Positions 26,269-42,448 of a stretch of 64,000 bases of DNA are shown piece after piece; the stretch's first letter is position 1, and each line of letters opens with the position of its first letter. Made by a program: the position numbers and the translations under genes. Where the stretch lies: assembly GCA_947311445.1 (NCBI GenBank), contig CAMZKV010000037.1, positions 5,494 to 69,493 of the forward strand, given 5' to 3'. This DNA is from an uncultured Chlorobiota bacterium (GTDB taxonomy: Bacteria; Bacteroidota; Bacteroidia; Bacteroidales; JAADGE01). The notes beneath the pieces are model-generated. The model saw only the letters and a program-made list of their open reading frames with translations. It had not been told where the DNA came from and made no database searches.

Positions 26269-28773
26269 TTATTTTATTTCTTCTCCTTCTGGCTCTTTCC
26301 CATTTTCAGGATTTGTACCAATAAGTGAAGTTGTATATGCAGTAAGGTTTGCAATTTCACTTTCTGTAAATTTCTTAAATGGGGGCATTATTCCAGCACC
26401 ATTTAAAATTACATTTTTAATGTCATCGTTTGATGCTCCATGTAATGTAAAATTATCTCCTAAGTTTGATCCCATACCTCCTTCTCCTTTTTGTCCGTGG
26501 CAAGCTGCACAATCATTTGCAAAAATAGTTGCACCTGCTTCTAAGTTTATTTCTCCTGAGTTTGTTTGTTCAACTTTAGGTTCATTCGCTTTCTTTTCAG
26601 CAATTTTTGCTAAGGAAATATCTTTTCCAAGTTTGTGCATATATGCAATCATTGCAATTATTTCTTTATCCCATGTAACATCTTTGCCCATGTCTTGAAG
26701 CTCTTTTGCAATTCCTTCTGCTTGTGTTTTATATGCTTTTTCAACCTTGTTATAATCAACATCCCCATTTTTATTTACAAAATTATAATCTTTTTCAGCA
26801 CCATCATATGGAACACCAAGAGTTATCATAACTTCTATTTTTCTTTTTAAAGTGCTGTTATCAATAGTGTTATCAAAAAACCAAGGATATGCAGGCATAA
26901 TTGATTTTTCAAATGTTTTTTGTGGGTTTAAAAAATGTTCGTAGTGCCAAATAGCAGGTCTGAACATTGTTCCTCCTCTGTATCCTGCACGAGCTAAATC
27001 CGGACCTGTTCGTTTTGAACCCCATTGGTATGGATGGTCATATACAAATTCTCCTTGTTTTGAATATTCTCCGTAACGTTCTGTTTCAGAACGGAAAGGA
27101 CGAACAACTTGCGAGTGGCAAGTATAACATCCTTCTCTAACATAAATATCTCGTCCTTGTAATTCAAGAGGTGTGTATGGTTTTACTGCTTCAATTGTAG
27201 GAATATTTGATTTTACAGTTATCATAGGAATAATCTCAACTAAACCTCCAATAATAATTGCTATTAAAATCCAAACTGTAAAATGTACTGCTTTTCTTTC
27301 TACCCATCTGTGAGGAGTTTCTCCCGCTAACCTTGCTTTAGCAACTTTTTCTCTTGGAGCAGCATGAGCTTCTTCGTTATTAATAATATGACCTGATTTT
27401 ACTGTTTTAACAATATTGAATATCATCATAACAGCTCCGCCAAAATAAAACAGACCACCTAAAGTACGAGTAACATACATTGGCATAATTTGAGTTACTG
27501 TATCTAAGAAATCAGGATATGCTAAGAAACCTGTATCTGTAAACTCTTTCCACATTAAAGTTTGTGTAAATGCTGCCCAGTATAATGGTACTGAATATAA
27601 TAACATACCAAATGTTCCAATCCAGAAGTGCATGTTTGCAGATTTTTCTGAATGTAGTTTTGTATTAAATAGTCTTGGAATTAACCAATATAACATACCA
27701 AAGGTTAAGAAACCGTTCCAGCCCATTCCTCCAATATGAACGTGAGCAATTGTCCAGTCTGTAAAATGACTTAATGCATTAACTGTTTTAAGTGATAACA
27801 TTGGACCTTCAAAAGTTGACATCCCATAAGCAGTAACACCAACAACAAAGAATTTAAGAATTGCACTGTCTCTTACTCTGTCCCATGCACCTCTCAATGT
27901 GAGAAGTCCGTTCATCATACCACCCCAAGATGGAGCAAGTAGCATGATTGAGAAAACAACTCCAAGAGTTTGTGCCCAATCCGGTAATGCTTGATATAAT
28001 AAATGGTGAGGTCCTGCCCACATGTATATAAAAATTAATGACCAAAAGTGAACAATAGAAAGTCTGTATGAATAAACAGGACGATTTGCAGCTTTTGGCA
28101 AGAAATAATACATTATGCCTAAGAATGGTGTTGTTAAGAAAAATGCAACAGCATTATGTCCATACCACCATTGAACAACAGCATCTTGTACACCTGCATA
28201 AACAGTGTAGCTTTTAAAGAAACTTACAGGTATTTCAATTGAGTTACCAATGTGCAGTACTGCAACTGCTACAAAACTTGCTAAGAAAAACCAAATAGCA
28301 ACATAAATGTGTTGTACTCTTCTTTTTATGAGAGTTCCAATCATATTCCATCCGAATGCAACCCAAACAACAGCAATTAAGATGTCAATAGGCCATTCTA
28401 GTTCAGCATATTCTTTACTAGTTGTGAAACCAGCTAAAAGTGTTATAGCAGCTAAAAGAATAATTGTTTGCCAACCCCAAAAGTTAAGTTTACTTAGAAA
28501 GTCGCTAAACATTCTTGCTTTTAAAAGACGTTGCATAGAATAATATGCACCTGTAAAAATGGCATTACCTGTAAATGCAAAAATAATTGCATTTGTGTGA
28601 ACAGGACGAACTCTACCAAAAGTGGTAAAGGACAAACCAAAGTTCAAAGATGGAAATGCAATCTGTGCTGCGGCTAACAAACCGACCAGCATACCTACAA
28701 TTCCCCAAAAAAGAGTTGCATAAGCAAATAGCTTCACAATCTTATTGTCATAGTAGAATTTTTCTTGTGTCAT
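26269..28773 (-). CDS. ccoN: cbb3-type oxidase fused CcoN-CcoO with an additional C-terminal cytochrome c domain
   Basis: FGRVRPVHTN, WWYGHNAV, WAGPHHL, WTIAHVH (CcoN); EGCYTCHSQ, WGSKRTGPDL (CcoO); extra CAACH domain at 26497-26511. Confidence 0.96.
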   Translation of the reverse strand: MTQEKFYYDNKIVKLFAYATLFWGIVGMLVGLLAAAQIAFPSLNFGLSFTTFGRVRPVHTNAIIFAFTGNAIFTGAYYSMQRLLKARMFSDFLSKLNFWGWQTIILLAAITLLAGFTTSKEYAELEWPIDILIAVVWVAFGWNMIGTLIKRRVQHIYVAIWFFLASFVAVAVLHIGNSIEIPVSFFKSYTVYAGVQDAVVQWWYGHNAVAFFLTTPFLGIMYYFLPKAANRPVYSYRLSIVHFWSLIFIYMWAGPHHLLYQALPDWAQTLGVVFSIMLLAPSWGGMMNGLLTLRGAWDRVRDSAILKFFVVGVTAYGMSTFEGPMLSLKTVNALSHFTDWTIAHVHIGGMGWNGFLTFGMLYWLIPRLFNTKLHSEKSANMHFWIGTFGMLLYSVPLYWAAFTQTLMWKEFTDTGFLAYPDFLDTVTQIMPMYVTRTLGGLFYFGGAVMMIFNIVKTVKSGHIINNEEAHAAPREKVAKARLAGETPHRWVERKAVHFTVWILIAIIIGGLVEIIPMITVKSNIPTIEAVKPYTPLELQGRDIYVREGCYTCHSQVVRPFRSETERYGEYSKQGEFVYDHPYQWGSKRTGPDLARAGYRGGTMFRPAIWHYEHFLNPQKTFEKSIMPAYPWFFDNTIDNSTLKRKIEVMITLGVPYDGAEKDYNFVNKNGDVDYNKVEKAYKTQAEGIAKELQDMGKDVTWDKEIIAMIAYMHKLGKDISLAKIAEKKANEPKVEQTNSGEINLEAGATIFANDCAACHGQKGEGGMGSNLGDNFTLHGASNDDIKNVILNGAGIMPPFKKFTESEIANLTAYTTSLIGTNPENGKEPEGEEIK

Positions 28774-28807
28774 ACTAATTTAATTTAATTGGTTTTTAGA
28801 ATTTATA

Positions 28808-28984
28808 TTAATTTTTGTTGTTATCTTTTTTCTGTTCATCAATTTCAATATCGTCAAATAAAATTCTCATAGCCGGAGTTTCATTATCATCAAACTGACC
28901 ATTTTTTACTGACCAAATATATAATGTTAAAAAAATTAATGCAACTATTAAGCTGAGACCTATAAGAATAAATATTACAATCAT
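28808..28984 (-). CDS. ccoS: cbb3-type oxidase assembly protein CcoS (58 aa, absent from the ORF track)
   Basis: Manual translation MIVIFILIGLSLIVALIFLTLYIWSVKNGQFDDNETPAMRILFDDIEIDEQKKDNNKN; W...GQFDD..PA.RIL.DD is the CcoS signature. Confidence 0.93.
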   Translation of the reverse strand: MIVIFILIGLSLIVALIFLTLYIWSVKNGQFDDNETPAMRILFDDIEIDEQKKDNNKN

Positions 28985-29187
28985 ATATAGTTGTTTTGAA
29001 CATTCAAAAATAATAAATAATAAAATAATATTAAAATATATTTTTATCTCTTTTGTTCCGAAGAATTTAAATAATATCTAATTATGGAGTTATGCTTATG
29101 TTGTGGGTTTATATTACTGTCATATTATCTTATCTAATTTAGAAACATTTTAAATAGTGTTTTATAAAAATATATAAAAAGTTTGTT

Positions 29188-32100
29188 TTAAAACTTAGCA
29201 CCAATAACAATGATATCATCAATTTGTTCATAATTACTCATCCAGCGTTCAATTGTATCGTCAAGATGTTGTCTTTGTTCTTTCATTGACATATCTTGAA
29301 TGTTGAGCAAAGTTTTTTTAAACCTTCCAATCATGAATTTTTTATCTCTGGGACCTCCAAATTGATCAGGGTATCCGTCAGAGAATGTGTAGAGTGTATC
29401 TCCTTTTTGTAATTTAACTGTTTGGTTTTTAAATCTTTGATTTATGTCATCATAATTATATATACCAATAGGCATCCTGTCTGCTTCAACAATAATTATT
29501 TCACCATTTCTAACAATATATAATGGATTAAATGCACCTGCAAATTCAACAATCTTTTTCTCTTTGTTAATTTTGCATAGGGCAATGTCCATACCGTCTT
29601 TTGCTTCTTGTGCTTCTCCGGTTTGGTGCAATGCTTCAATAACTTTTGCTTTTAGTAAGTCTAATACGTCAGATGCTTTTAGTTCGTTTTGTGAAGTTCT
29701 AATTATATCGTTAAGGAAAGAAATTCCTAGCATACTCATAAATGCACCTGGAACACCATGTCCTGTGCAATCTGCTGCTGCATAATATGTTATATTATTT
29801 TTTTCGGCTGCCCAATAAAAGTCTCCACTTACAATATCTCTTGGTTTAAACAGAATAAAACTATCTGGCATAAGTCTGTCTAGCAATTTATCTGGTGGCA
29901 ATATTGCATGTTGAATTCTTTTAGCGTAAAGAATACTGTCTTCAATTTCTTTTTTTTGATTTGTAATTTCATCTCTTTGTTGTTCTGCTATATCTCTTTG
30001 AGACTTAATTTCTTCTTTTTGAGCTTCAAGTTCTGTGTTTTTTTCAGTTATTTCTATTGTTCTTTCTGCAACAGTTTTTTCTAGTTTTTCATTTTGTTTT
30101 TTTAGAATTCTCATTCTCCATTTTTGAATTAGCCAAAAAACAAAAATAATCAGCAGAATTACCGGCAAAACAAACCACCATTCTTTGTAAAAAGGTTTTT
30201 TTATTTCAAAATCTACGCTTTGATAATAGCTCCATATTCCATCTTTTCCTTTTGTTCTGTATTTAAAACTGTATTTTCCCGGCGGTAGAATAGGGTAGGT
30301 TGCGATGTTTTTATTTACTTTTGATGCAACATAGGTGTTTAATCCTTGCAGATAATAATCATATTCAACAGAGTTTTCGTCTTTAAATGACAATCCTGAG
30401 ATTTCAAAAATTATGTTGTTTTGAGTTGAGTTCAAAACTTTTGGCATATTTAGAAATCTTTTACCATTTATGAGTATAGATTCTATTCGACAAACCGGTG
30501 TGTATTTTTCAGTTTTTTTCTTTTTTATATCAAAAGTTGCAATTCCGTGATATGTTCCTATCCAAAGGGTGTTTCTTTTATCAAGATAAAGCCCGTCAAC
30601 TGATATTTCATTTCCAAGAAGTCCGTCTCTTGAATCTATTATAAATTCAATTTTATTGTTTGTTTTGTTGTAGTAATATACTCCTCTGTCTGTTCCAATC
30701 CATAGCATATTAGGATTTTCTGCACTTTCAATTGCTGTTACAAGACGATTGCTAAATTCTTCTTTGTTTACAAATTCTACTTTTTCATTTTGATATTTGG
30801 CAAGACCATTTTGTGTTCCTATCCATAAGAATTTTTCAAAACTGGCTGTTTTTTTATTTTGGACAGAATCAATGTGAAGAGCCCAAGTATGGTAGTTTAT
30901 TTCTTTGAATTTTTGGAAAGTTTCGTTCTTAAATATCACTAATCCAGTATTATTTGCTCCAATAATGTTGTTGTCAAATTCAATTATTTGGGAAATTAAT
31001 GAAGTTTCGGAATTTTCAATTTTTAAAATGTCAGATTTAAAATCTTTTAGATAATAAATTATTCCAGAATTTCCTGATAATAGAAACATTTCATTTTTAG
31101 AAGAAATAAAAATGTCATTTAGATGGAATAAGTCTGTTTTAAAAATTTTAGATTTTTTTTGGCGAAGTGTATTTTTATCAATAAGATAAATTCCTTTTGT
31201 ATCTGCAATAACAATATCATTTTCTTTGTTTTCTGAGATTACAAATGAATTGTTTTTTAATTTTAGTTTATCTGTAAAGTTTAAGAGACTACCTTTTATA
31301 TAGTGAATGCCAGTGCTCATTCCTACCCAAACTCTTCCTGAATTATCTTTAAAAACTGAATTTATAGTACTGTTTATATCTTTTGGGTATAGTGTTCTTA
31401 AACTTTTATTAGTTAATTTCTGAACTCCTCCTGAAAAACCAAACCATGTGTTTTCTTCATTGTCAACTATAAAAGAGTTTATCTTATGATTTAGAAGTCC
31501 TATGTTTTTATCGTAAATTATTGGTTTTTGTTTTAATGTTAATATTTGATAAATTTTGTAGTCGGATATGAGCCAAACAGAGCCATTTTTTGTTTGTTTT
31601 ATTTTATTAATTTGTGTGTGAATATTAAGTGTTTCATTTAAAGGAATTGCTCTATTGATACTATCTATCTTATTATCAGTATAATAAACTCCTGACTTTG
31701 AAGAAATCCAAAGTCTTTCATCTGTATCATATAGAGCAGATAGACAAAATTCATTGGTTATTTTTCGTACAGTTTTATTTTCTAAAATAAATAGACCTTC
31801 TCCGGATGCAATAATTATTTGATTAGTTTTTTTATTTATAGATATAGAGTTAATTTTTTTGGGTAAATTATTGATTTGCATATTCATACAAATTTCTTTT
31901 CCTTCCTCAGAGATAGTATATAATCCGTCATCTCCAAAAAATAGTACTCTATTTTTGTCAATACAAATTCCTTTAAAAGAGATATTTTTAAAATATGTTT
32001 TAATTTTTTCATTTTTTTTATTTAAAACTGATATTCCGTTTAGCCCTGCGAAGTATATTTTTCCGTCAATACCTTGATTAATACTAAAAACAGAATTTCC

Positions 32101-33894
32101 TGCTAATCCGTTTTTTGAATTATATATTTTCATTTTTCTGCCATTATATTTTGCGACACCTGAATATGTGCCAAACCAAATATAGCCTTCTGTGTCTTGA
32201 AAAATAGAAAGGACATCTTCTTGTGGTAATCCTTTATCTTTACCATAAAATACGAAAGGAAAATACCCTTCTTGGTATGTTTCGTGAAGGACTGTGAGGT
32301 AATTTTTGGCAGATTGCATACTCATACCTGCCTGATGTTTAAAATATTCATCAAAAATTCCATTTTTTCGAGCATATTCAAAGAATTCAAGTATCTTTTG
32401 TCGTAAAAGTGGCTGATTTTTTTTAATTGCCCAGCCCATTTTTTTTATTTCTCCAATAATAAATTTTGCTTCTAACTTTGGGTAATCTGCTAGTTTAAAA
32501 ACGGATATGTTTGAAATTGTATAGTCTGCTTTGCCGGAAATAACATCGCTAAAAAAATTATTACCGGTATTATGATAATAATTTGTGATATTATTTTGGT
32601 TTAAAGCATATTCATAAGATGAGCCTTTGGATGTTACTCCTCTTAAATTTTTTAAATCGTTAATTGAACTTATTTTTGTGTCTTTTCTTCCAATTACAAC
32701 TTTTGCATTAGGAAGAAAATCTAGAACATCTACTTTTTTTAGTCGCCATTCCAATGGGTCAATTAGATCGCATGCAACATCAAATTCATTAAACCATTTT
32801 GGGTTGTATGCACTGTCTTTTAGAATTTGTCCTTTTTCATTTTCCCAATATCGAGAAAATTTTTCTGTAAAAACAAATTCGGGTTTAAGTCCAAGATATT
32901 TTGCAAAACTTTCGGCAAGAAGATGATTAAATTGTTTTTTTCCGGTAGGATGATATACTAAATCTCTGTCTCTTAGAGCAATAATGATTTTTCCTGATTT
33001 CATTATTTCTTCAATATCTCTTGTTTTATCTCCTTTTTGAAGGCTTGAGAATGAATTTATAATTTCAAGGTAAGTAGAATAATCAATATCATATTTTTCT
33101 CTAAATAGTTCATCTAATTTTCCGTTTCCTCTGATAGTTTCAAAAAAGTTTTGAATTTCTTCTTTTATCTTATTATTTCCTTTTTTTACTGCCCATCCAA
33201 CATTTTGGGGTTTATTAACAGGGAATGTAAGTTTAAAATTATTATTATTTTTAAGATAAGATAATGCAAGAAAAGAAACTGTAATTAGACCATCAGCTTT
33301 GCCTTCTTCAAGAAGTTTTAGGGATTCGTCTTCTGATTTTGTTTTTATGTATTCAATTCCTCCTCCAATTTTTTTATTAATAAGAGAAATGTTTGTTTCG
33401 TATGTTGAATTTTCTAAAAATGCAATTTTTAAACCTTTAAGGTCTTTTTTGCTTTTAATTTTTTTAGAAACATTTTTTTTAGTTATTAAGATGTCACTTA
33501 TTTGAATAATTCCTGAATAGTCAAAAAATTTTTTTCGCCACTCAAGTTCGTAAATTGTTCCACAAATTATGTCTGCTTTTTGCAGAGCATCCGGTGTGTA
33601 GCTAATTTTTGGGTTTGTTTTATAATCATTTGGAATTTTTCCATCTTTTGAGAATACATCATCCCATTTTATTGTTGTTTCTTCAAATTTAACATCTAAA
33701 AATTTTGCAAATTCTTGTGCTGCTGTGTAGTTTACAGTGTTTTTCCAACTTTCTGTAAAAGCGATTGTTATTTTTCCTTCTTTTTTTATTTTCTTTACTG
33801 TTTGAGAATATATAAAGAATGGTATGATGAAAAATAGTATGAATAGTAATTGTTTTTTCATTTTATTAAATGATTCAGTATTTTTTGTAGTCAT
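29188..33894 (-). CDS. Sensor PP2C/SpoIIE phosphatase: two family-3 substrate-binding domains, beta-propeller, Y_Y_Y, TM, coiled coil, SpoIIE
   Basis: Two SBP-like repeats (G.I.IA, DL.GL, G.AD, GWA.KK); repeated D..G..W.G propeller blades; PPGKYSFKYR Y_Y_Y; PRDIVSGDFYW, ADCTGHGVPGA, DGMD, FSDGYPDQFGG, DD catalytic motifs; start may be the later MKKQLL. Confidence 0.88.
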   Translation of the reverse strand: MTTKNTESFNKMKKQLLFILFFIIPFFIYSQTVKKIKKEGKITIAFTESWKNTVNYTAAQEFAKFLDVKFEETTIKWDDVFSKDGKIPNDYKTNPKISYTPDALQKADIICGTIYELEWRKKFFDYSGIIQISDILITKKNVSKKIKSKKDLKGLKIAFLENSTYETNISLINKKIGGGIEYIKTKSEDESLKLLEEGKADGLITVSFLALSYLKNNNNFKLTFPVNKPQNVGWAVKKGNNKIKEEIQNFFETIRGNGKLDELFREKYDIDYSTYLEIINSFSSLQKGDKTRDIEEIMKSGKIIIALRDRDLVYHPTGKKQFNHLLAESFAKYLGLKPEFVFTEKFSRYWENEKGQILKDSAYNPKWFNEFDVACDLIDPLEWRLKKVDVLDFLPNAKVVIGRKDTKISSINDLKNLRGVTSKGSSYEYALNQNNITNYYHNTGNNFFSDVISGKADYTISNISVFKLADYPKLEAKFIIGEIKKMGWAIKKNQPLLRQKILEFFEYARKNGIFDEYFKHQAGMSMQSAKNYLTVLHETYQEGYFPFVFYGKDKGLPQEDVLSIFQDTEGYIWFGTYSGVAKYNGRKMKIYNSKNGLAGNSVFSINQGIDGKIYFAGLNGISVLNKKNEKIKTYFKNISFKGICIDKNRVLFFGDDGLYTISEEGKEICMNMQINNLPKKINSISINKKTNQIIIASGEGLFILENKTVRKITNEFCLSALYDTDERLWISSKSGVYYTDNKIDSINRAIPLNETLNIHTQINKIKQTKNGSVWLISDYKIYQILTLKQKPIIYDKNIGLLNHKINSFIVDNEENTWFGFSGGVQKLTNKSLRTLYPKDINSTINSVFKDNSGRVWVGMSTGIHYIKGSLLNFTDKLKLKNNSFVISENKENDIVIADTKGIYLIDKNTLRQKKSKIFKTDLFHLNDIFISSKNEMFLLSGNSGIIYYLKDFKSDILKIENSETSLISQIIEFDNNIIGANNTGLVIFKNETFQKFKEINYHTWALHIDSVQNKKTASFEKFLWIGTQNGLAKYQNEKVEFVNKEEFSNRLVTAIESAENPNMLWIGTDRGVYYYNKTNNKIEFIIDSRDGLLGNEISVDGLYLDKRNTLWIGTYHGIATFDIKKKKTEKYTPVCRIESILINGKRFLNMPKVLNSTQNNIIFEISGLSFKDENSVEYDYYLQGLNTYVASKVNKNIATYPILPPGKYSFKYRTKGKDGIWSYYQSVDFEIKKPFYKEWWFVLPVILLIIFVFWLIQKWRMRILKKQNEKLEKTVAERTIEITEKNTELEAQKEEIKSQRDIAEQQRDEITNQKKEIEDSILYAKRIQHAILPPDKLLDRLMPDSFILFKPRDIVSGDFYWAAEKNNITYYAAADCTGHGVPGAFMSMLGISFLNDIIRTSQNELKASDVLDLLKAKVIEALHQTGEAQEAKDGMDIALCKINKEKKIVEFAGAFNPLYIVRNGEIIIVEADRMPIGIYNYDDINQRFKNQTVKLQKGDTLYTFSDGYPDQFGGPRDKKFMIGRFKKTLLNIQDMSMKEQRQHLDDTIERWMSNYEQIDDIIVIGAKF

Positions 33895-33905
33895 AAAATA
33901 ACATA

Positions 33906-33932
33906 AAAAAGTATCATTTAATGATACTTTTT
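33906..33932 (-). terminator. Terminator-like hairpin between xseB and the phosphatase gene
   Basis: aaaaagtatcat-tta-atgatacttttt perfect stem with a U-run on the minus strand. Confidence 0.6.
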
Positions 33933-34131
33933 AGGAGTTATTTTCTTCAAATATTTTTTCAATTTGTTTTTCTGTATTCAATAGTTTTAATTTGCATTTT
34001 TCCAAAAGTTCAGAAACTCTTTTTACTTTCCCGGATAATTGGTCAATTTCTACATTATTATTTTCAATATCTTCTAGAATAGTTTCTATTTCTAAAATTG
34101 CATCATTATATGAAATTTCTTTCTTTGCCAT
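33931..34131 (-). CDS. xseB: Exodeoxyribonuclease VII small subunit
   Basis: MAKKEISYNDAILEIETIL..IE....IDQLS.KVKR..ELL..CK.KL..TE..IEKI matches the XseB pattern. Confidence 0.88.
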   Translation of the reverse strand: MAKKEISYNDAILEIETILEDIENNNVEIDQLSGKVKRVSELLEKCKLKLLNTEKQIEKIFEENNS

Positions 34132-34135
34132 TTTA

Positions 34136-34525
34136 TTAGTCTTCAAAAGGAATCATTTCAATTTCTAATCCTGTGTCTAACATATAATCTTCAATGTCTT
34201 CTTCCATATCAATATCATCTTCGTCATAGTACCAATTTATTAATACTTCTCCTCCGTCTTCTTCATAATCTTTAATTATATTAAGTAAATCTAGGATGCT
34301 TCTAGAAGTACTTGTGTTAAAGTATGTTAGTTTTATTTCAAATGTTAAAGGATTTTTCACTTCTGTTGTAAATTCTTCAAGCCATTGAATAAGTGGATCG
34401 TAAAATTCAATTGTATCTTCGAGAAAAGATTCGCCTTCTAATAAGCAATATCCTGTTTCTGAATTAAAATCAACAGTTGGTATAAAAAAATTAGTGTGTG
34501 AACCTTCTATATGTATATTTTCCAT
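34136..34525 (-). CDS. SiaC family (DUF1987) regulatory phosphoprotein
   Basis: TP.VDF...G...GES..E....FY.P...WL, L.YFNTSTSR, INWYYDEDD.DM.E motifs. Confidence 0.88.
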   Translation of the reverse strand: MENIHIEGSHTNFFIPTVDFNSETGYCLLEGESFLEDTIEFYDPLIQWLEEFTTEVKNPLTFEIKLTYFNTSTSRSILDLLNIIKDYEEDGGEVLINWYYDEDDIDMEEDIEDYMLDTGLEIEMIPFED

Positions 34526-34538
34526 TATTTTATTTTTT

Positions 34539-35081
34539 TTATTTATCAACTTTTACTGAGATAGAAAAATAGGATGTTTTTTCATCAATTGGGTTTATTT
34601 CCAGGTCTAGAGGATTGCCGGATGTGAGAGCCACAGTTATTAAACCAATATTTGGACTATGGTTTTCGTCTTTGTTTTCTCGTCTGACGCTTCTTTTGTA
34701 TTCTCTCAATTCTGAATGGTCAAGTTCGTTAATGTTTTTGCTATTTTCCAAAACAGGAATTAGATGTTCATTTTTTATGGGATTTCCTGTAACTAAAATA
34801 AAATTTTTAACAGTTTCTTTAAGGATTATTGTTCCTGCTCCAACTTCTTTACCGTTTTTAAGTTTTATTTTCTCCGAAGAATATTTTGAAATATTTTCAG
34901 CAAGTTCAAAAAATATCTTAAATAATTTTTTTGTTGCTTTTTCTGAAAGAGTGTTTACAACTCCTATATAATCACCAAGATATGTAATTATCTTTCCGTC
35001 AACAGGACCTTTGTATGATATCCTAATTTCTTCTGAAAATAGGCTTTGTCCTAAACTTAGTTTTTTGTTAATTGTTGCCAT
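34539..35081 (-). CDS. SiaB family (DUF6272) protein kinase, paralog 2
   Basis: SYKGP, F.IFFELAENI.KYS, TGNPI, L...Y, NIGLI.VAL.SGNPL; its ATG directly follows the stop of paralog 1. Confidence 0.82.
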   Translation of the reverse strand: MATINKKLSLGQSLFSEEIRISYKGPVDGKIITYLGDYIGVVNTLSEKATKKLFKIFFELAENISKYSSEKIKLKNGKEVGAGTIILKETVKNFILVTGNPIKNEHLIPVLENSKNINELDHSELREYKRSVRRENKDENHSPNIGLITVALTSGNPLDLEINPIDEKTSYFSISVKVDK

Positions 35082-35082
35082 C

Positions 35083-35622
35083 TTATGCTTCTTTATTAAT
35101 TTTAACTGCAATAATATAGAATGATTTTTCTTTTTCAATTTCAATAAAAGAAACATTCAAAGGATTTCTAGAAAGCAGTGCTGCCTGAACCAGTCCAATG
35201 TTTCCCGTTCCTCTTTCTCCTTGCGGAAGTTTTCTGAGCTCTCTTTTGAATGTTCTTAACCCGTCTCTGTCATACGAATTTATTTTGTCGCATTTATCTT
35301 TTAGGATTATTTCATGTTTTTTGTCTATTGGGTTTCCTAAAATAAAATTATAATGATCATCATTATTTTGAATAATGAAAGTTCCAACACCGGAACTTTC
35401 TCCTTTTTTAGTTTGTTCTTGTTCGTTGGAATAGTATGAAACATTTTGTGCAAGTTCAATAAATACTTTAAATATTGTTTTGTTTAATTTCTTATCTGCA
35501 GATATAGAATGTTCAATGTTTTTTCCAAACATTGATAATACCTGACCATCAAACGGACCGGTGTATGACATAACAATATTTTTTCCGGTTAATCGTGTAA
35601 AAACACTTTTAGTAGCACTCAT
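35083..35622 (-). CDS. SiaB family (DUF6272) protein kinase, paralog 1
   Basis: SYTGPF, FKVFIELAQNV.YYS, GN.I, IN......LR, GNIGLV.AALLSRNPL. Confidence 0.82.
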   Translation of the reverse strand: MSATKSVFTRLTGKNIVMSYTGPFDGQVLSMFGKNIEHSISADKKLNKTIFKVFIELAQNVSYYSNEQEQTKKGESSGVGTFIIQNNDDHYNFILGNPIDKKHEIILKDKCDKINSYDRDGLRTFKRELRKLPQGERGTGNIGLVQAALLSRNPLNVSFIEIEKEKSFYIIAVKINKEA

Positions 35623-35664
35623 ATAATCTTATTTTTAGATGTGATTATACTATTTTTAAAAAAA

Positions 35665-35672
35665 CAAATATA
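35665..35672 (-). promoter_or_regulatory. -7 element of the siaB-siaB-siaC-xseB unit
   Basis: TATATTTG on the minus strand about 42 nt upstream of the first ATG. Confidence 0.55.
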
Positions 35673-35911
35673 TATAAAATCTTATACTACACAAAATATG
35701 ATATTTTTTATATACTCAAATACAAATTTTATTAATCTCATTTTATGTATTAAAACTTACACTTAAAAGGGGGGAAAGATGTAATTTATGAGCTGACGAG
35801 CAAAACAGTTCATTTTTTTGGACGAATTAATTTATGGACTAATGGGCAAAACTTGTTGGTTTATTATTTTTTATATAATAATTATTAAAATGTATTATGA
35901 AAAAGTGAATT

Positions 35912-35941
35912 AAAAAAAAAGCCGACAAGTAATTGTCGGCT
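35912..35941 (-). terminator. Intrinsic terminator ending the rhodanese/porin cluster
   Basis: agccgacaa / ttgtcggct stem with an 8-9 nt U-run on the minus strand. Confidence 0.85.
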
Positions 35942-35973
35942 CTGGGATTAACTAAAAATTAGAAAACGAAAAA

Positions 35974-36807
35974 TTATTTTTCAACTTTACCAGTTTTTAC
36001 CCATTCGTTTAATGCTCCATCGTAAACTTTTACATTAGGATATCCAAGAATTGATTTTAATACTAAAAATATAACTCCTGCTCTAACACTTGTTTTGCAA
36101 TAAAGAATTATTTTTTTATTTGAAGTTATTCCTGCGGATTTAAATGCACTTGCTAATTCTGTTTTTGATTTAAATTCCCCTTTCGAGTTTAAAACTTTTT
36201 TAAAATGAAAATTAACTGCTCCGGGAATATGACCCCCTAAACTTTTTTCAGTTTCTCCTTTAAATTCATCAGCCGGACGAACATCTACAAGTAGATAATT
36301 TCCGGATTTTACGTCTTTTAATTTTGCAATATAAGCAAATTTAACACTAGGTGTAAATGTTGTTTTTGATAAAGTTGTAGGAGATGATGAAAATGGTTTT
36401 CTTGCAGCAAACCATGCTTTGTAACCTCCGTTAAGCATTTTTACATTTTTAACACCTAAATATTTAAGTACCCAATACATTCTTCCAGCGTATTTGCCTG
36501 AACCATTATCATACACAACAATTGGTTTTGTGTTGCTTACACCTTTACTTCCAAGTATTGTAGCAATAGCAGAAGATGCTTTTAATTTGCCTTCGGAAGA
36601 CGAATTTAATTCTTTATAATGAATATTAATTGCACCTTTAATATGTGCTTTTGCATATTTCTTTGCTTTTCCTGCATAAATTACAATACATTCTTTCTTT
36701 TTAATCTTTGCTGCCAAATCTTTTGCTGATATAAAATCTTGTGCTTTAATATTCATACTTGAAAGAACAAATATAAATACCATAATTATTGAACTTAATT
36801 TTTTCAT
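35974..36807 (-). CDS. Exported tandem-domain sulfurtransferase (rhodanese, SseA/TST-like)
   Basis: Signal peptide ending in IKA-Q; HIKGA, VVYD.G...AGR.YW.L...G...V..LNGG..AW, DVR...EF.G...GHIPGA, active loop YCKTSVRA, YDGA..EW. Confidence 0.92.
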   Translation of the reverse strand: MKKLSSIIMVFIFVLSSMNIKAQDFISAKDLAAKIKKKECIVIYAGKAKKYAKAHIKGAINIHYKELNSSSEGKLKASSAIATILGSKGVSNTKPIVVYDNGSGKYAGRMYWVLKYLGVKNVKMLNGGYKAWFAARKPFSSSPTTLSKTTFTPSVKFAYIAKLKDVKSGNYLLVDVRPADEFKGETEKSLGGHIPGAVNFHFKKVLNSKGEFKSKTELASAFKSAGITSNKKIILYCKTSVRAGVIFLVLKSILGYPNVKVYDGALNEWVKTGKVEK

Positions 36808-40930: not shown

Positions 40931-42448
40931 ATGAAAACAACTATAAATAGTCTTTATGAAAAAAAAGACGATTGCATAAAATTAATTATTGAAAATTCAG
41001 AAGATATTATTTCAATTCATGATTTTGAAGGAACATATTTATTTTTTTTGGGAAGGCATAAATTTAATTATTTATCTGATGAAATAATTGGAAAAAAACC
41101 TTCTGATTTTTATGAACAAGATATTGCAGATAGAATTGTAAATAATATAAAAGATGCATATATAACTGGTGAAAAGAATATATTTGAAACTAAACTTTTA
41201 TTAAATAATGAATTTATTTGTTTTCAAATTAAAACTTTTCCTATAAAAGAAAACAATAAAATTGTTTCAGTTATGAAAATTTGTAAAGATATAACTGAAA
41301 AGGTAAAGAATAAACAAGATATATTAAAACAAAAAGAATTTCTGAATAATATTTTAAATTCAATAACTCATCCATTATACGTAATAGATGTTGAGACATA
41401 TAATATTGTTCTTGCAAACAAAGCAACTAATTTTAATGGATTTTCTGAGTTTAAAACTTGCTACTCATTATCTCATAATTTTAATAAGCCATGTAACGAA
41501 GCGGGTTATTCATGTCCAGTAGAAATTATAAAAAAAACAAAAGAATCTTGCATTACTGAACATATTCATTTTGATAAGAATAAAGAAAAAAAGGTTTTTG
41601 AAGTTCATGGGTTTCCTGTTTTTGATGAAAATAATAAGCTAATTCAAGTTATAGAATATAATATTGATATATCTGAAAAGAAAAAGCTAGAAGAATTATT
41701 ACTTATTGAAAAGGAAAAGGCAAATGAAAGTAATAGGTTAAAAACTGCTTTTCTTACAAATATGTCGCATGAAATTAGAACACCAATGAATGCAATTCTT
41801 GGCTTTGGAGAATTAATGAAAAATGAAAAACTTGAAGTTGAAAAAAGAAATAAATTTATTGGCATTATTAATAATTCAGGAAATTATCTTTTAGAATTAA
41901 TTGATGATATTATCGATATTTCTAAAATTGATGCAAAACAATTAGAAATTGTTGAATCAGAGGTTAACATTATTTCATTAGTTAATTAAATTTATATGTC
42001 TTTTATTTCTGAGCTTCATAATAATAAAAATAAATCGCTTATTGTAAATTGTGAAATTAAGAAGGGAGATGATTTAATACTAATTGACAGACAACGTTTA
42101 AGGCAGATTTTGACAAATTTGATTAGTAATGCTATTAAATTTACTGAAAAAGGTATAATTGAAATTAAATACTCGATTATACAGGAAAAAGAAATTTTGT
42201 TTGAAATTAAAGACAATGGAATTGGTATATCAAAAAAAGATATTCAATATATATTTGAAAGATTTAGGCAAGCCAATAATAAAACTAAAAAAGTTTATGG
42301 AGGCACAGGTTTAGGTTTAGCAATTTCAAAAGGTTTTGTTGAGTTAATGGGAGGTAAAATATCGGTAGAGTCAATAGAAGGGAAAGGTTCAATTTTTAGT
42401 TTTACTATTCCATATAATCAGGTCAAATTAGTTAATAATAAGTACTAA
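40931..42448 (+). pseudogene. PAS-PAS histidine kinase interrupted by one in-frame TAA (split into 40931-41989 and 41996-42448)
   Basis: gtt aat TAA att tat ATG: both ORFs are in frame; upstream part has two PAS-like domains and MSHEIRTPMN, downstream part has QIL.NL..NA.KF, DNGIGI, FERF, GGTGLGL. Confidence 0.85.

Follow-up and report, generated by a model that had tools for sequence, protein, structure and literature searches.

The window analysed here is a stretch of 64 000 nucleotides of contig CAMZKV010000037.1 (positions 5494 to 69 493 of the forward strand; GenBank assembly GCA_947311445.1), from an uncultured Chlorobiota bacterium placed in the Bacteroidales (JAADGE01) in the lineage of the Genome Taxonomy Database. 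The subject of the analysis is a group of five genes in this window, siaB1, siaB2, siaC, xseB and a large PP2C phosphatase gene, which had been read from the letters alone as a SiaABC-like partner-switching system (hereafter the original prediction). All five genes were found co-oriented on the minus strand between positions 29188 and 35672, and all five products passed the cut-offs of their hidden Markov models (HMMs).

The first gene, siaB1 (35622..35083), encodes a predicted Ser/Thr kinase of 179 aa belonging to the B1 clade of the SiaB family (DUF6272, GHKL-like). It is followed by siaB2 (35081..34539), which encodes a second predicted kinase of the same family (180 aa, B2 clade). The spacer between the two genes is exactly 1 nt, as first read (TAA 35085-35083, g 35082, ATG 35081). 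The siaC gene (34525..34136) starts 13 nt past the end of siaB2 and encodes a SiaC/DUF1987 phosphoprotein of 129 aa, whose predicted phospho-site is Thr71 (codon 34315..34313). The xseB gene (34131..33931), starting 4 nt past the siaC stop, encodes the exonuclease VII (ExoVII) small subunit (66 aa). The last gene (33894..29188) encodes a sensor PP2C of 1568 aa with SBP_bac_3, Reg_prop, Y_Y_Y and SpoIIE domains (Pfam). Public gene calls gave identical lengths for the first four products (179, 180, 129 and 66 aa). The rhodanese gene upstream ends in a predicted strong terminator (35943..35918, minus strand) that marks the 5' boundary of the unit and has an 11-bp stem with 5 G-C pairs and a T-run. 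The DNA runs holding the stretch were epibiont and hydrothermal-vent metagenomes.

Kinases, phosphoprotein and phosphatase

The kinases were assigned with two HMMs, NF038262 (SiaB family protein kinase, cut-off 85 bits) and PF19788 (DUF6272, cut-off 26.6 bits). SiaB1 scored 131.9 bits with the former and 109 bits (E 1.8e-31) with the latter; the scores of SiaB2 were 120 bits and 101 bits (E 4.7e-29). SiaC was matched by PF09345 (DUF1987) with 128.2 bits for a cut-off of 24.5 (E 1.7e-37), and the SiaB and SiaC assignments of the original prediction were thus upheld by all three models. Sequence alignment with Pseudomonas aeruginosa SiaB (6KKO_A) gave E 3.5e-10 for SiaB1 and E 1.6e-6 for SiaB2. 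An AlphaFold2 model of SiaB2 (pLDDT 84.4) had 6KKO_A as its top structure match (TM-scores 0.74/0.79, E 5e-9), and SpoIIAB, RsbW and other anti-sigma kinases ranked behind it. A SiaB2 orthologue with 88% identity is named 'SiaB family protein kinase [Bacteroidales bacterium]' by NCBI.

The comparison covered 24 genomes of the window's family, which has eight genera; the sampled order comprises >140 families. The N-box Glu and Asn are present in SiaB1 (IELAQN, E56/N60) and in SiaB2 (FELAEN, E59/N63) and were kept in all orthologues. E56 of SiaB1 and E59 of SiaB2 correspond to E61 of P. aeruginosa SiaB, the predicted catalytic residue of that kinase (PMC7647112). The G-box reads GTGNIGL in SiaB1, HSPNIGL in SiaB2 and GAGLGL in P. 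aeruginosa SiaB, and in the whole B1/B2 superclade [NH]-I-G-L replaces the G-L-G-L of the glycine-rich ATP-lid box. The contrast between PNIGL in siaB2 and GNIGL in siaB1, to which attention had been drawn, is real but confined to the genus of the window (g1), and it leaves the N-box Glu/Asn intact in both proteins. In the other genera, the SiaB2 box is GNA(H/N)IGL and the SiaB1 box is G(G/T)GNIGL. A clade-wide pseudokinase role of SiaB2 was ruled out, SPNIGL being genus-specific.

SiaC was aligned with 6KKO_C/6K4F. YFNT71S sits on YLNT68S of P. aeruginosa SiaC, and the conserved YFNTS threonine pointed out earlier is therefore Thr71, the match of Thr68. Thr or Ser occupied the phospho-acceptor column in all of the SiaC sequences collected (72/72). 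The P. aeruginosa SiaB dimer binds SiaC in a 2:2 complex and, once Thr68 has been phosphorylated, lets SiaC go; SiaA reverses this phosphorylation (PMC7647112, PMC7278518).

The phosphatase can be read from ATG 33894 (1568 aa) or from ATG 33861 (MKKQLL..., 1557 aa), the latter being the likelier start. The protein consists of a signal peptide, two amino-acid-binding-protein-like domains, a propeller/Y_Y_Y ectodomain, one transmembrane (TM) helix, a coiled coil and the PP2C domain. Residues 30-280 and 291-543 form an internal repeat of two GlnH-like solute-binding domains. The ectodomain, of ~1200 aa in total, matched the Bacteroides hybrid two-component system (HTCS) sensors 3V9F and 4A2L as well as GlnH-type binding proteins. 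The TM helix (~1238-1259) is followed by a coiled coil of ~70 aa. No HAMP domain was reported among the domain and structure matches of the protein, which has one TM helix rather than two. The PP2C domain aligned end to end with SiaA (6K4E, E 9.2e-31), its best match among solved structures, and has kept the motifs SGDFY (1356), DCTGHG (1375), SDGYPDQ (1505) and DDIIVIG (1559). The elements of a Sia-type partner switch, namely the fold of SiaB-family kinases, the phosphoprotein SiaC and a PP2C catalytic domain like that of SiaA, were thus all recovered.

Conservation of the cluster and origin of the two kinases

A SiaC orthologue was found in 23 of the 24 family genomes. The order siaB1-siaB2-siaC-xseB was present in five of the eight genera (g1, g2, g5, g6 and g8), with a third siaB upstream of the four genes in g2. 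Across the conserved loci siaB1 and siaB2 are spaced by 1-5 nt, and their translation is probably coupled. SiaC is accompanied by two or three kinases in this family. The giant PP2C gene comes directly next in g1, g6 and g8 (44-85% identity). In genus g5 (L043:9190-10616), the genes directly after xseB are IS-like helix-turn-helix genes, and beyond these come a histidine kinase, a receiver and a REC-PP2C. The flanks of the cluster, a rhodanese/porin block and cbb3 oxidase genes, vary even within the genus. Since these flanks were not conserved while the cluster was kept, the cluster behaves as a self-contained unit. In other families, the closest loci were arranged (B, siaB; C, siaC) as PP2C-B-C-C, B-C-B-C-PP2C-PP2C, B-C-B-C-C, PP2C-B-B-C-C, B-C-C and B-C-PP2C. 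The association of the phosphatase with siaBC, on which the original prediction depended, was hence seen throughout the genus, in a further two genera of the family and, beyond the family, in several others.

The kinases had been described as duplicated. They share ~35% identity and belong to two old clades, and they did not arise by a recent duplication. A maximum-likelihood analysis of 69 SiaB sequences placed SiaB1 and SiaB2 in separate clades, each with members from other families. In siaB-siaC-siaB-siaC loci, the first kinase is of the B1 type and the second of the B2 type. A SiaC tree was congruent with this, as were the identities. The SiaC of the window and those of its family grouped with the SiaCs found after B2 kinases (support 94/88), and the clade of SiaCs found after B1 kinases (support 94/88) contained zero members from this family. 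The SiaCs of the family were 70% identical to the second SiaC of these four-gene loci vs 52-61% to the first. Because the B1 and B2 clades occupy siaB-siaC-siaB-siaC loci elsewhere, loss of the first siaC best accounts for the present order. In the simplest history suggested by the trees, two adjacent siaB-siaC modules would have lost the first siaC by deletion, leaving two kinases and one substrate.

As SiaB works as a dimer (PMC7647112, PMC7278518), SiaB1 and SiaB2 could form an obligate heterodimeric kinase for the single SiaC, with SiaB2 and its eroded glycine box as the regulatory or pseudo-kinase half. The conserved 1-5 nt spacing suggests coupled translation and would suit such a pair, as would the genus-wide SPNIGL in place of GxGNIGL. 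The same 2:1 stoichiometry is found in SiaB-SiaB fusions (contigs C23 and C4) and in a SiaB-SiaB-SiaC fusion (contig C88), among which second halves with eroded G-boxes occur, but the fused proteins fall in a different SiaB superclade. An obligate heterodimer is considered unlikely. B1-type and B2-type kinases were each found alone with SiaC in other genomes, and one genome of the same family (G016) has retained only a B1-type kinase, beside a b-type SiaC. Moreover, SiaB2 of the other genera has a Gly-containing box, GNA(H/N)IGL, and the N-box Glu/Asn of SiaB2 is intact. The heterodimer put forward in the original prediction is thus not indicated in its obligate form, and a facultative SiaB1:SiaB2 heterodimer may exist. 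Two kinases that each act on SiaC are the preferred reading.

Fused SiaB proteins were observed at three loci. The C88 fusion (C88:7969-9516, L006) has 515 aa and carries an eroded G-box, ENPGLGL, in its second kinase half. The next gene (C88:9535-11523) encodes pentapeptide repeats and a K+-channel-like pore (TIGYGD), a possible target in cis. The C23 locus (C23:22818-25642; L005, L008) encodes a 361-aa SiaB-SiaB fusion with both G-boxes intact, then four tandem SiaC paralogues. The C4 fusion (C4:36470-37642; 390 aa) has no adjacent SiaC. In its second half, a clear candidate pseudo-kinase, N-box Glu and glycine box are both lost (VKALRN and KKPDLNL, respectively).

Absence of a diguanylate cyclase and the predicted switch

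The absence of the SiaD cyclase, noted originally for the window, extends to the genome. No match to the GGDEF profile was found in the window or in the 2.75-Mb assembly (93.75% complete). Forty relatives from 24 genera yielded one 26-bit fragment in total; control genomes gave matches. Since GGDEF is missing from the genome and is represented in the relatives by this fragment alone, the output cannot be synthesis of cyclic di-GMP (c-di-GMP).

The cluster was compared with known systems. It resembles P. aeruginosa SiaABCD (PA0172-PA0169; PDB 6K4E, 6KKO, 6K4F, 7E6G) in its kinase fold, family HMM and SiaC phospho-threonine motif, in forming one co-oriented cluster, and in a PP2C domain that is closest to SiaA among solved structures. 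It differs in its order (kinase-kinase-SiaC-xseB-phosphatase), in having two kinases, each of a different old clade, where SiaABCD has one, and in having no SiaD, GGDEF being represented by that one fragment in the 40 relatives. The phosphatases also differ: SiaA has two TM helices and a HAMP domain, whereas the protein found here has a periplasmic ectodomain of ~1200 aa, then a single TM helix and a coiled coil. The NCBIfam equivalog models scored 60.7 and 57.3 bits for the two kinases with NF038264 (SiaB, cut-off 225), 83.4 for SiaC with NF038265 (SiaC, cut-off 150) and 175.5 for residues 1279-1567 of the PP2C protein with NF038263 (SiaA, cut-off 700). As these scores are far below the cut-offs, the SiaB, SiaC and PP2C proteins of the window are not orthologues of the P. 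aeruginosa proteins.

The Bacillus SpoIIE-SpoIIAA-SpoIIAB and RsbU-RsbV-RsbW systems share the logic of a PP2C, a small phosphoprotein and a GHKL kinase. The SiaB2 model matched the structures of SpoIIAB and RsbW, and the PP2C matched SpoIIE. The phosphoprotein of the Bacillus systems is a canonical STAS protein, whereas it is DUF1987/SiaC here, and a sigma factor is not linked to the locus. The genome has a single STAS protein, away from this locus. The Bacteroides HTCS sensors (3V9F, 4A2L/4A2M, 3VA6, 3OTT) share Reg_prop and Y_Y_Y with the ectodomain (~545-1235, E down to 5.5e-28). Their output is a histidine kinase, a receiver and AraC, in contrast to the PP2C found here, and two GlnH-like domains stand in front here. 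The cyanobacterial slr1658/slr1659-type regulators (NF047703) are distant DUF6272-like relations (SiaB2, E 8e-4); SiaB2 is not a member of NF047703 because its score of 18.9 bits is far below the cut-off of 100.

The family and fold of the kinases, the phospho-site of SiaC, the PP2C motifs, the linkage of the genes and the absence of GGDEF are directly supported. The unit is probably a c-di-GMP-independent Sia-type switch, in which two kinases and a sensor phosphatase together determine how far one SiaC is phosphorylated. A periplasmic signal would be sensed by the ~1200-residue ectodomain, with its two binding-protein-like domains and its HTCS-type propeller/Y_Y_Y part. The single TM helix and the coiled coil would relay the signal and switch the PP2C domain, which would strip the phosphate from Thr71 of SiaC. 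SiaB1 and SiaB2, each probably homodimeric like P. aeruginosa SiaB, would re-phosphorylate Thr71. With both kinases acting on SiaC, two kinases and one sensor phosphatase would converge on a single SiaC. Unphosphorylated SiaC would then bind and control a target encoded elsewhere; a diguanylate cyclase is excluded as this target.

Several points weigh against this model. The activity of either kinase is assumed, because both G-boxes depart from the canonical GxGLGL. Output candidates were sought in gene neighbourhoods and by a motif scan of the proteome, and none emerged. A search of RNA runs for the stretch gave none, the stretch being held by DNA runs only. The pairing with the giant phosphatase is not universal, since one genus (L043) has IS-like genes and a REC-PP2C with a histidine kinase at that place. 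With 24 PP2C genes and 13 SiaC paralogues in the genome, cross-talk is possible. Finally, experimental knowledge of SiaABC is, to our knowledge, confined to Pseudomonas, where the system controls a diguanylate cyclase. A literature search turned up no work on Sia-type systems of Bacteroidota. As for the claim of an undescribed system, its parts belong to recognised families named by NCBI; it is the output that is undescribed.

P. aeruginosa SiaC acts as a clamp on the coiled-coil SiaD stalk, with Thr68 inserted between the helices (PMC8457831). A regular expression for docking to the SiaD stalk was built from the residues given in that paper and run on the whole proteome. No convincing target was found in the proteome, and none in this operon, XseB included. 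The sole suggestive match was KRLSSEMQAL, which resembles the core of the SiaD stalk, in the PP2C of another Sia locus (contig C18). This locus (C18:4952-10886, L002) comprises a PP2C-SiaB-SiaC module; next come genes for an ABC-type exporter of 1084 aa and for two small exported proteins. The genes flanking the cluster in the window were rejected as outputs: the upstream rhodanese/porin block and the downstream ccoS/ccoNO genes already differ between members of the genus. The more remote SiaB2 homologues of Cytophagales were bare siaB genes or siaB-siaC pairs with no informative neighbour. According to an eLife paper, DUF1987 occurs widely and may act as a modulator of adjacent proteins.

The kinases could themselves be the outputs, as in SpoIIAB/RsbW-like systems. 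Each SiaB would hold a target of its own, to be released on capture of the kinase by unphosphorylated SiaC. The binding of unphosphorylated SiaC to SiaB is tight (PMC7647112), SpoIIAB, RsbW and other anti-sigma kinases are the next matches of the SiaB2 model after SiaB, and no conserved output gene is present in cis. Such a role would also explain the two or three kinases per SiaC in the family. It is nevertheless very unlikely, as the P. aeruginosa output is bound by SiaC, not by SiaB (PMC8457831), and neither a sigma factor nor another conserved partner lay beside any of the loci examined. In a wider proposal, which is quite unlikely, SiaB/SiaC would be a general Ser/Thr hub in c-di-GMP-free Bacteroidales, with many sensor PP2Cs and 2-3 kinases per SiaC; SpoIIAB-like kinases would hold targets and release them on SiaC capture. 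Gating of single-stranded DNA (ssDNA) metabolism by the switch via XseB is a lesser variant of this proposal. Control of a distant target by SiaC itself, under two kinases and one phosphatase, is preferred to both.

Transcription signals, xseB and other Sia modules

Bacteroidetes promoters have the consensus -7 TAnnTTTG and -33 TTTG. A promoter of this type is predicted at 35665..35695 (minus strand), with a -33 TTTG at 35695..35692 and a -7 box TATATTTG at 35672..35665. The TTTG lies 19 nt upstream of the -7 box, and the siaB1 ATG 42 nt downstream of it. The box TA(A/T)ATTTGTTTTTT was identical in 5/5 aligned sequences of the genus. The promoter proposed upstream of siaB1 in the original prediction is plausible because the Bacteroidetes-type -7 box and the TTTG are invariant in these five genus members; the sigma-70 scan, in contrast, was no better than chance (43 promoter sites vs 43.9 expected, no enrichment). 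A search of positions 28700-36100 with Rfam gave just two sub-threshold matches, both on the upstream terminator.

An AT-rich hairpin, AAAGTATCAT-TAA-ATGATACTTT, followed by a T-run (33901..33933, minus strand), overlaps the xseB stop and is a putative terminator or attenuator. Its stem, AAAGTATCA...TGATACTTT, was found in every locus of the genus having xseB, with variable loops and fold energies of -11.6 to -22.4 kcal/mol. It was missed by a consensus terminator scan because the stem has just 2 G-C pairs. Because only ~70 nt lie between the xseB stop and the likely PP2C start (33861), an attenuator is the preferred reading of the hairpin. It probably lowers expression of the phosphatase relative to the kinases and SiaC.

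Were the hairpin a terminator, siaB1-siaB2-siaC-xseB would be a separate transcription unit ending there, and the giant PP2C, merely downstream, would not be cognate. The terminator-like structure between xseB and the PP2C gene is kept in the genus, L043 and genus g5 are without the giant PP2C at that position, and the genome offers 24 PP2C genes. However, the ~70 nt from xseB to the likely PP2C start are too short for a promoter of its own, and the linkage has held in g1, g6 and g8 at 44-85% identity despite changing flanks. PP2C genes also adjoin orthologous modules in other families, and SiaA is the best match of the catalytic domain among solved structures. Little probability is therefore given to a non-cognate phosphatase, and the PP2C is retained as the phosphatase of the switch.

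XseB scored 37.2 bits with PF02609 (cut-off 24) and 36.5 bits with TIGR01280 (cut-off 35), the latter by a small margin. The gene was the sole xseB copy in each genome examined, that of the window included. It follows siaC by 2-10 nt in the family of the window and lies beside xseA in several other families. The xseA gene was not found in the 93.75%-complete assembly of the window; it was present on other contigs in 14/14 relatives of the genus, and its absence here is therefore most likely an assembly gap. The same result ruled out an orphan XseB that would have acquired a new function without XseA. Neither xseA nor xseB is present in genome G016, the SiaB-SiaC cluster of which is without xseB; in genome G020, xseB is on a different contig from siaC. 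Since xseB was lost with xseA in the former and is separated from siaC in the latter, its retention tracks ExoVII, not the switch. It is probably a housekeeping passenger, an ordinary ExoVII small subunit that moved into the operon in the ancestor of the family, and it would be co-transcribed with the switch genes as such.

A working part for XseB in the switch, for example sequestration of the helical XseB by SiaC to gate the assembly of exonuclease VII, is highly improbable. Its position 2-10 nt after siaC dates from the ancestor of the family, and its Pfam scores here (34-42 bits) are lower than those in most of the order's other families (33-57 bits). SiaC is able to bind coiled-coil helices, those of SiaD (PMC8457831); the docking expression found no SiaD-like motif in XseB. 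The nearest SiaB-SiaC-SiaC loci of other families adjoin ssb, another ssDNA gene, but orthologous Sia modules of other families occur without xseB. In addition, xseB is the sole copy in each genome, xseA is kept in the 14 genus relatives, the cluster has lost xseB exactly where xseA was lost (G016), and xseB is on a separate contig in G020. The passenger role of xseB is thus preferred. The loci with ssb were observed in other Bacteroidales families (L051:6192-7503, L052:7868-9188 and L048), where a DUF481 outer-membrane protein and ssb come next after SiaB-SiaC-SiaC. The presence of ssb and xseB, both ssDNA genes, next to Sia modules is probably a coincidence of housekeeping synteny.

Two other arrangements were observed. 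At C93:4863-13773, two tandem SiaC genes are followed by five small hemerythrin-like genes (W..F..G...ID..H, recognised by eye) and a PP2C gene; a second PP2C gene is divergent. In the window, a split histidine kinase is encoded at 40931-42448 (plus strand), as a 352-aa PAS-PAS-HisKA protein followed after 6 nt by a separate HATPase_c protein of 150 aa.

The 2.75-Mb genome holds 13 SiaC paralogues, 11 SiaB/DUF6272 domains, 24 SpoIIE-type PP2C genes and 1 STAS protein. These counts suggest that the Sia type is the dominant format, and so the main Ser/Thr partner-switch format, of this organism. The switch has long been kept in a cyclase-free lineage, and SiaC (DUF1987) must therefore have other targets. 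Bacteroidales include important gut and environmental bacteria. Identification of the target would give access to a signalling pathway apparently unstudied in this order. The collapse of two modules into a unit with two kinases and one substrate provides a clear test of whether different inputs are integrated by paralogous SiaB kinases.

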